Shown: positions 239-2,510 of the stretch, in pieces
Numbering within the stretch: the first letter of the stretch is position 1
Layout of the letters: each line of letters starts with the position of its first letter
DNA from: Escherichia coli O157:H7
GTDB taxonomy: Bacteria; Pseudomonadota; Gammaproteobacteria; Enterobacterales; Enterobacteriaceae
Assembly: GCF_013167455.1 (NCBI RefSeq)
Contig: NZ_CP038328.1
DNA: 64,000 nt
Reading direction: 5' to 3' (one strand)
The notes under the pieces: model-generated
Seen by the model: only the letters and a program-made list of their open reading frames with translations
The model's database searches: none
Told to the model about the DNA's origin: nothing
Translations under genes and position numbers: made by a program

Positions 239-2510
239 GGAAAACTCCCCAGTTTTGCAGCGATGCCAGTGCCTGCTGTTCGAGTTGTTGATGATGTGCA
301 ATGGCTTGTGGTGGGCAATGCAACGGCATTTGCAGCGCCGAAACGGGAAGTTGCGCCAGTTGATAATGTTCAAGCACCTGATGCGCCAGTGTCCCGCGTT
401 CTCGTGGCGGTAGCCAGGCCATCGCCGCGCGTAAATCGGGCAGGGCATTGATAAAATCGGCATCACTTGGTTGATTTAAATGACTGCTGAAACCGGCGAT
501 AAATGCCGGCTGACAGGCCAGTTGATGGCGGGCCAGCGCCAGCAAACCGTGCAGCGCTTCGCCGGATTGTGCCGGGGATAACTGCGCCAGCATCGTCAGC
601 GCCGCTTCGGCACTAGCGTTGGGATGTTCCAGACGCATCAGTGCGCCAAGAGCCGCGCCGCGATCCAGCGCCGGGGCATGGATTGCCTGACTGCGTCGCT
701 CCAGTAAGGCTACCGCCGCAGAAAGAGAAACGCCGGGTAAATTAACGCCGCTATGTAGATCGCGCAGAATATGGCAAAGCGCTTGCCAGCTATGCAGGTG
801 AGCGTGAAACTCCTTTTCATCCGGTCTGCCGTTAGATTCACACAGCCACAGCGTGCGATCGATAGCCGCGCATAACGTCGTTTGTGATATCTGCGCACCT
901 TGCATACCGCTAATTTCATCCAGCCGCCATAAGGCATATAGCACTTCCAGCGCCGGGCCCATTTCGGCAAATTGATTTTCCTAGGCGATTAATAATGTGA
1001 GTTGCTCCAGTAATTGTTGACTGAAGGACGCCAGACCCGCTAACGCCGCCTGGCTAAGACATGTGGTGATACTGCCGATTCCACCCGCGTCCAGCATATC
1101 GGCTTCTAATTTATGGCGTGCGGCTTCCTGGAGTGTGGCACCAAAGCAGGCGGCCTCAATCAATGCCGCATGCTGGCTAAGCGGGCGGGTTAATTTCCAG
1201 CGTTCTTCACCGTTGCCTGCAAGTGTCAGTGTGCTTCCCTGCTGGCGTACAATCCCTGGGATCTCCAGTATTGCCAGCCGATGTAACACCTGACTTTGCG
1301 CTAGTCCATTGGGGTTAAAGCGATTTAAGGTAAGCTCCGCCGAAAGAGAGATTGCGGTACGTTCCAGTTCGCAGGTGACATCTTTTGGCAGAGGCGGTTG
1401 TGGCGTAGAAGGGGCAAGTTTACCGAATCCGTCACCCGCTAATGTGTCTATCAACGTTAGCAGAATCGGATCGGTATCGGGATGAATAACGCCGCGATAG
1501 CTCCACGGCAACGGCGCGTTCAGGGCTTCTTTAATCAGCGAGCCTGCTATGGCATCCAGCCAGTCAGTGCGTAACGGTAGTTTATATCCGCGCAACTGTG
1601 CCAGCGCCATCGCATGCAGATGAGCGGCAGCCATATCCGCGGTCGAAGCAGGCAAGTGGTGTTGGCGCAAACGGGTAAGAACCGTTTTTAGCAGTTGTTC
1701 TCCCGCCTGCTGTAAGCCCCACTGCCAGCACCAGCTTTGCCAGACCGGGGCAGGCATTCCTGAAAGGTATCCTGCCAGCACATCAAGGCGCTTTTCACTG
1801 TAGGGTGTGAGATAACAACCTGTAACGGCATCTGCCAGCGAGGGCAATTCTGGCTTGTTAATGTCCTGCGGGCATTCGCGCCACATTTTTGCCAGTGCCG
1901 GAGCGTGCCAGCCACCGCAGACGACTAACACGTCGCCATTATTTTGCTGCACTGCCCATGCAATCCAGCGAGCCATAAAGGCTTCGCGCTGACGATTGAG
2001 TGCATCGCCGGGGAAATCGCCCCGCAGTTGGGCAAAATAGTGCGCCAGTGCAGAGGGTAATGCAGTTTGCTGGCTTTCATCTTCGAACAAGTGATCCCAC
2101 AGGGTATCGCTGTTATCCATGCGGGTGGCACGCAGCAGCAAGGCCTGGCTTTCCTCTTGCGTATCAGGCGAATCGTCCTCTTCTTCACTCTGCGCCCAGC
2201 AAGGCAAATCGATAAAGTAAGTTTGTGCCTGAATATGACGTGCGGCTTGTAGCGCCTGCCACTCCGGCGAAAATTCGGCAAATGGCGTCCAGGCGCCGCG
2301 CCCAGGAGCAGCACCGTCCTGATACTGGCAATAACTGTAAATAGCCACCGGAAGCTGGTGGGCTAAAAACAGTTCATCTACCCGGTCATTAAAATCAGCC
2401 GGGCCTTCAATCAACACGTATCGTGGTCGCTGGCTTTCGATTAACGATTTCACCAGTCGGGCGCAGGCCGGACTATGATGCCGGATGCCGACAATTAACG
2501 GCTCGCTCAT
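231..2510 (-). pseudogene. yehM: YehM-like large protein; frame interrupted by a single in-frame TAG at 981-983
   Basis: Track ORFs 981..2651 and 231..962 share one minus frame and are separated only by TAG. Probable start ATG 2510 (MSEPLIVGIRHH...) lies 10 nt after the yehL stop; the end overlaps the yehP start. 759 codons if read through. Confidence 0.6.

Follow-up and report, generated by a model that had tools for sequence, protein, structure and literature searches.

The closest described systems to the yehLMPQ operon of Escherichia coli are the RavA–ViaA-type modules, in which a MoxR AAA+ ATPase is combined with a von Willebrand A (VWA) protein (PMC3893208). YehL, the founding member of the YehL subfamily of MoxR proteins (PMC3893208), and YehP form a pair of the same kind; they match AAA_5 (E 1e-33) and VWA_CoxE (E 2e-72), respectively, and are encoded adjacent to each other in one operon. 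Unlike other MoxR–VWA modules, the YehL module possesses two extra partners, the DUF5682 protein YehM and the SWIM-finger protein YehQ. In strain K-12, the operon is silenced by H-NS (PMC3686432). The present work concerns 64,000 nucleotides (nt) of E. coli O157:H7 (contig NZ_CP038328.1 of assembly GCF_013167455.1; 'the window' below is this whole stretch), in which the yehM frame is interrupted by an amber codon. It is very probable that a genuine, vertically inherited change of Gln510 (CAG) to amber on the O157 stem, likely caused by deamination at a Dcm site, made yehM a pseudogene.

Amber mutations at Dcm sites have a precedent in the lacI gene, where amber hotspots classically result from the deamination of 5-methylcytosine to thymine, a change that escapes Vsr repair. 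Coulondre, Miller, Farabaugh and Gilbert are said to have placed these hotspots at CCAGG Dcm sites in 1978. A lineage-marking null is known in O157:H7 itself: the uidA frameshift of typical O157:H7 has this role in the stepwise-evolution model (PMC6256406; PMC7175801).

The amber codon and its distribution

Over its first 3,000 bases, the window matches the E. coli O157:H7 Sakai sequence without a difference; its position 1 is Sakai coordinate 2,888,013, and Sakai coordinates decrease along the window. The coding strand of yehM is the minus strand, which corrects the original prediction. The pseudogene, a member of the DUF5682 family, occupies positions 231..2510 (ATG at 2510-2508, TGA at 233-231) and is identical to Sakai ECs_2928 and to EDL933_RS15660. 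Minus-strand translation of positions 2651..231 yields one frame with a single stop in it, in agreement with the proposal that a single in-frame amber at 981-983 splits the gene, which has 759 codons from the ATG at 2510-2508. This TAG (981..983, minus strand; CTA on the plus strand) is codon 510, which was ancestrally CAG (Gln) and corresponds to Sakai 2,887,031-2,887,033; the substitution is at window position 983, now A on the plus strand and T on the coding strand. The gene length of 759 codons had been given correctly, and the truncation, placed earlier at about codon 509, shifts slightly: the stop is codon 510 and the last residue is 509. The 5′ part of yehM (984..2510, minus strand) has a predicted truncated product of 509 amino acids (aa). 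The 3′ remnant (231..980, minus strand) comprises codons 511-759 and the stop; it is untranslated and contains the derived change L681P and the AWLPPRER motif region. The first in-frame ATG past the stop, codon 517 (960..962, minus strand), is the only plausible restart point. It also accounts for the earlier figure of 243 codons beyond the amber, which counts from this ATG (open reading frame 231..962); the sense codons following the stop really number 249.

The frame does reach an overlapping yehP start, as had been claimed. The yehP ATG (238-236) and the yehM TGA (233-231) lie within the overlap ATGTCTGA (231..238, minus strand), which constitutes a translational-coupling junction. The window contains the 5′ end of yehP (1..238, minus strand), encoding a VWA_CoxE-type protein; the remainder of the gene is located to the left of the window. 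The first gene of the operon, yehL (2521..3609, minus strand), encodes a MoxR-type AAA+ ATPase (AAA_5) and is intact.

The amber allele is directly observable in public genomes. The 601 bases spanning the amber have 100% identity in all 40 O157:H7 assemblies among the matches listed, and the exact TAG-bearing 61-mer is found in 299 complete E. coli genomes. A haplotype-independent TAG-bearing 37-mer, chosen as a core invariant across the haplotypes compared, detects 300 carriers among 5,426 complete E. coli genomes; because megablast requires an exact 28-base word, genomes without the TAG cannot seed a match. All of the 60 carriers sampled were O157-labelled, or unlabelled genomes of 5.1-5.6 Mb that are consistent with O157. 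The carriers include Sakai, EDL933 and many PacBio assemblies, which were produced by separate groups on various platforms. RefSeq annotates yehM as a 'pseudogene' in Sakai (ECs_2928) and with an 'internal stop' in EDL933, LSU-61 and PV15-279. The pseudogene status of the Q510* allele is, then, already part of public annotation; its timing, hotspot context, recurrence and the position of the break are the details added here.

Age and mutational origin of the amber codon

The alignment to intact yehM suggested by the original prediction gave CAG (Gln) as the ancestral codon, and the intact orthologues support its reading of the TAG as a nonsense allele. Codon 510 is CAG, and yehM encodes 759 aa, in K-12, O26, 23CRST027, NRZ14408 and O55:H7 CB9615. 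The O157-type 61-mer, with its TAG turned back to CAG, has exact matches in O55:H7 CB9615, RM12579, USDA5905, DEC5A/B/D/E, TB182A and two unlabelled relatives, and also in a small number of unrelated strains. O55:H7 has an intact yehLMPQ operon, and its yehM differs from that of O157 by only four changes, A186A, Q510*, L681P and T707T. That the amber occurs by chance in some arbitrary open reading frame can be discounted, since the rest of yehM differs from the intact O55:H7 gene at 3 of 2,280 positions.

The four changes are distributed stepwise. LSU-61, proposed as an intermediate between O55:H7 and the O157 branches (PMC7175801), contains TAG and T707T without A186A and L681P. The β-glucuronidase-positive O157:H7 strain PV15-279 (PMC6256406) contains TAG, T707T and A186A without L681P. 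Both strains have an intact yehQ. Sakai and EDL933 have all four yehM changes and also an IS629 insertion sequence (IS) at the yehQ stop codon. As read from these sequences, Q510* and T707T followed the split from O55:H7, LSU-61 then split off, A186A was acquired, and the β-glucuronidase-positive clade split; L681P and the IS629 insertion at yehQ came after that split and led to typical O157:H7, to which the window belongs. This order makes the amber the earliest lesion of the operon. The codon arose once on the O157 stem, after the O55:H7 split and ahead of the branching of LSU-61, and has been retained in every O157 genome examined. The amber carriers yielded no closed genome of sorbitol-fermenting O157:NM; strains that seemed candidates by name belonged to clade 8 O157:H7.

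In Sakai, the IS629/IS1203 element (positions 1095-2404 of the flanking segment L001, just left of window position 1) is inserted at about nt 2002 of the 2,004-nt yehQ, and EDL933 is the same in this respect; the element is absent from the yehQ 3′ end of LSU-61, PV15-279 and O55:H7. Being essentially at the stop codon, it lengthens YehQ and does not cut it. The annotations of yehQ differ: EDL933 RefSeq records a 'missing C-terminus', and the Sakai open reading frame is extended into the IS.

The uidA frameshift and the yehM amber each inactivate a backbone gene by one change that is inherited clonally and can serve as a phylogenetic marker. The amber is the older of the two, because both the β-glucuronidase-positive PV15-279 and LSU-61 carry it; it differs from the uidA frameshift in having no known phenotype.

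The ancestral coding-strand context of codon 510, ATCGCCCAGGAAA, reads ATC-GCC-CAG-GAA and contains a CCAGG Dcm site. At positions 980..984, the former site has changed from CCTGG to CCTAG on the plus strand and from CCAGG to CTAGG on the coding strand. The C-to-T change hit the internal cytosine of the coding strand, the base methylated by Dcm in such sites. Only 6 of the 281 possible nonsense substitutions in yehM fall on Dcm targets, or 6 of 103 when only G:C-to-A:T transitions are counted; the corresponding chances under uniform mutation are p ~0.02 (all nonsense targets) and p ~0.06 (G:C-to-A:T transitions only). The dcm-vsr pair was matched over its full length (100% coverage) by 5,358 genomes, among them O157 LSU-61, 2017C-4109 and O157 Al Ain. 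Judging from this context, the most likely cause of the amber is spontaneous deamination of 5-methylcytosine (C-mC-AGG to CTAGG) that escaped very-short-patch repair by Vsr.

The homologue search also returned a 509-aa protein with the same end residue on a different haplotype. Its source, the Logan SRA assembly SRR6362021 (L014, positions 4001-7410), represents an unrelated E. coli lineage; codon 510 has likewise changed from CAG to TAG there, and the gene differs from O157 yehM at 103 of 2,280 nt. The nearest differences around the amber are at nt 1396 and nt 1554/1556, and the complete genome closest to this lineage shows only 97.2% identity. No second amber haplotype was found among the complete E. 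coli genomes. The simplest reading of the L014 sequence is an independent recurrence at the hotspot. Recombination as the source of this amber was considered and is unsupported, since the 157-nt identical tract is the consensus haplotype, also present in the CAG alleles of O55 and 23CRST027. The yehP gene of this assembly is broken too, by a +1 frameshift that leaves 204 + 152 aa.

The yehM amber resembles the lacI hotspots in several respects. Both involve a C-to-T change of the internal C of CCAGG that converts an in-frame CAG to TAG; in both cases the host has dcm and vsr, and the same site has been struck twice independently in yehM. Unlike the members of a laboratory mutation spectrum, the yehM amber is a natural allele fixed in a wild lineage.

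Consequences of the stop and alternative explanations

YehM is a DUF5682 protein, with a Pfam match over residues 20-715; when the first 250 aa were scanned permissively against Pfam in search of TraB/TIKI/ChaN families, DUF5682 alone was matched. Intact YehM is modelled with confidence by AlphaFold2 (mean predicted local distance difference test score 83.5, predicted template modelling score 0.78): an alpha/beta domain at the N-terminus is followed by a middle part of mixed structure and by an unbroken helical region spanning residues 445-753. Helix 494-510 ends with residue 510; being located inside the helical region, the stop cuts a helical domain and does not coincide with a domain border. 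The predicted 509-aa fragment would still contain the alpha/beta domain at the N-terminus, which is ChaN/TraB/EreA-like, together with the middle region and helices one to four of the C-terminal helical domain.

The 249 residues lost are constrained in intact orthologues. The segment past the stop still matches DUF5682 profile positions 497-695 on its own, and in an alignment of 36 homologues from Enterobacterales, Burkholderiales and others (46-88% identity to O55:H7 YehM) it contains 33 invariant columns, including the AWLPPRER motif region. The homologues with at most 72% identity among the matches listed are all full length (about 758-859 aa), and none is about 509 aa long. The ratio of non-synonymous to synonymous substitution rates (dN/dS) among intact yehM alleles is 0.08-0.18, and for codons 511-759 it is 0.05-0.17. 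By this measure intact yehM is under purifying selection, with codons 511-759 constrained at least as strongly. As the fragment is devoid of most of the C-terminal helical domain, YehM would have lost its function in O157.

Ribosomes that terminate at codon 510 no longer get to the yehM/yehP coupling junction, and about 743 nt between the amber and the yehP start are left untranslated; a crude heuristic finds C-rich, G-poor stretches in this interval. Polarity of the amber on yehP, raised by the original prediction, is plausible from the sequence. Expression of yehP and yehQ is predicted to be lowered by this untranslated stretch of messenger RNA and by the loss of stop/start coupling.

Lesions of yehM are not confined to O157. 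One other E. coli lineage (L015, positions 3001-5280) has a GGA-to-TGA change at yehM codon 425, and the protein cluster concerned has 1,108 member sequences; in another (L016, positions 1160-4527; cluster of 613 members), yehM stops at codon 224 and yehL is split into 151 + 216 aa. A frameshifted 600-aa form of YehM (P0017) also exists, and in Shigella sonnei lineages 2 and 3 both yehM and yehL are deleted (PMC12795559). These independent lesions and the S. sonnei deletion indicate that yehM loss is common and apparently cheap. Since the operon is H-NS-silenced in K-12 (PMC3686432), the loss should be nearly neutral; it would have been tolerated in an operon that is silenced and dispensable and that several other E. 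coli lineages have lost on their own. Matches of YehL, YehM, YehP and YehQ to PADLOC defence models were sought as well, and none was found at E <= 0.01; an identity of the operon as an anti-phage defence system was rejected on this ground.

Four other explanations of the interrupted frame bear on this reading. An error of sequencing or assembly hiding a sense codon can effectively be dismissed, although the original prediction allowed for it; nothing beyond that a priori possibility speaks for it, and the identical allele is found in 300 independently sequenced complete genomes from many laboratories and platforms, is flagged in RefSeq as a pseudogene and is phylogenetically coherent, LSU-61, PV15-279, Sakai and EDL933 having TAG and O55:H7 not. 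It is scarcely more credible that a full-length protein is made by a suppressor transfer RNA (tRNA) or by programmed recoding. Low-level natural read-through of UAG does occur in E. coli, and a supE-type tRNA-Gln(CUA) would give back exactly the wild-type Gln. However, the anticodons of Sakai glnX and glnV are the wild-type CTG, for which reason supE-type suppression was rejected for this strain; the 64-kb window contains no tRNA genes; and although a supE-type tRNA is found exactly in 155 genomes, the 30 among the matches listed are all K-12 laboratory strains or their derivatives. Orthologues outside the O157 clade all have CAG, save the one independent mutant lineage, and a TAG that is unconserved among orthologues is the opposite of a recoding site. 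A functional split gene, in which re-initiation at codon 517 would give 509-aa and 243-aa polypeptides and restore both function and yehP coupling, is very unlikely as well. It could draw on an in-frame ATG six codons past the stop and on intact yehP and yehL in O157, and restart at start codons near a termination site is known in E. coli. Codon 517, however, has no usable Shine–Dalgarno sequence, the nearest AGGA ending 16 nt upstream; the break is at the end of helix 494-510, within the helical domain and not in a linker; and no distant homologue among the matches listed is naturally split or about 509 aa long. The two post-stop changes in the 3′ part, L681P of typical O157 and a change at nt 1721, a second codon position, in PV15-279, are both non-synonymous (n = 2), which fits relaxed constraint.

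The remaining explanation concerns the cause of fixation and is compatible with a pseudogene: loss of yehM, or of the whole YehLMPQ module, may have been adaptive on the O157 stem and in other lineages. The position of the earliest lesion on that stem and at least four other independent yehM lesions elsewhere, the same codon included, agree with such a history. Mutation bias alone, however, predicts recurrence at a Dcm hotspot, H-NS silencing of the operon in K-12 (PMC3686432) would make its loss near neutral, purifying selection persists on intact alleles, and no phenotype is known; adaptive loss is thus improbable, though less so than the three preceding explanations. On a related and slightly more doubtful view, YehM loss was selected, the amber being among the first changes on the O157 stem, and the Dcm-hotspot amber and at least three other lesions would have arisen in unrelated lineages because inactivation or rewiring of the module is beneficial in some niches; the 509-aa fragment, with its ChaN/TraB/EreA-like domain, might even have altered activity.

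The account proposed above has some weaker points. No visible decay affects the rest of the operon: O157 has whole yehL and yehP genes, and LSU-61 and PV15-279 also have an intact yehQ. The suppressor-tRNA check took in the Gln suppressor tRNA genes. The Dcm mechanism would follow from the sequence context and one recurrence, and a very short gene-conversion tract (<=157 nt) might, strictly speaking, still have carried the amber between lineages. The codon state of O157:NM is presumed from that of LSU-61. None of the evidence contradicts the interpretation of yehM as a nonsense pseudogene, and the amber is a case of ordinary gene decay.

Neighbouring elements and implications for O157

The spacer between yehK and yehL (window 3610-4849) contains a tandemly duplicated zor-orz type I toxin–antitoxin locus with a repeat of about 610 nt. 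It comprises OrzO-P antitoxin RNAs at 3721-3796 and 4332-4405 (minus strand; Rfam 99.9 and 88.8 bits) and two 29-aa ZorO/ZorP-like open reading frames at 4042-4131 and 4651-4740 (plus strand). Sakai and LSU-61 have a spacer of 1,240 nt, O55:H7 CB9615 and PV15-279 one of about 630 nt and K-12 one of 306 nt; this variation in length within the lineage indicates that the zor-orz copy number has changed more than once.

A large annotated pseudogene of the MolR family (8868-15675, minus strand; Sakai ECs_2921) adjoins yehI. In the LSU-61 annotation, the counterpart consists of DUF4132 and WGR-domain fragments and has an internal stop. With this decayed gene nearby, yehM is not the sole decayed gene of the neighbourhood. 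The molR/yehH pseudogene belongs to the same region as yehM and is an annotated pseudogene in K-12 and O157; the molR remnant is the older of the two and bears several lesions, against a single point lesion in yehM.

Further along the window, three tandem SIB antitoxin RNAs (58726-58868, 59054-59196 and 59382-59530, minus strand; Rfam RF00113, 140-145 bits each) represent an Ibs/Sib type I toxin–antitoxin array at 58726-59530. Other RNA elements, all ordinary and known, are a thiamine pyrophosphate (TPP) riboswitch upstream of thiM (28946-29042, plus strand), naRNA4 (36888-36958, plus strand) and the small RNA CyaR (45279-45364, minus strand).

For biology at large, a documented pseudogene in an H-NS-silenced operon of a well-studied pathogen is of little import. 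For the O157 lineage, the yehM amber is a clean early clade marker that separates the whole O157 clade, LSU-61 and β-glucuronidase-positive strains included, from O55:H7. It is also a natural case of the Dcm/5-methylcytosine amber hotspot, with two independent occurrences. O157:H7 is a natural yehM null, which calls for caution in carrying results on the YehLMPQ MoxR–VWA module over from K-12 to O157.

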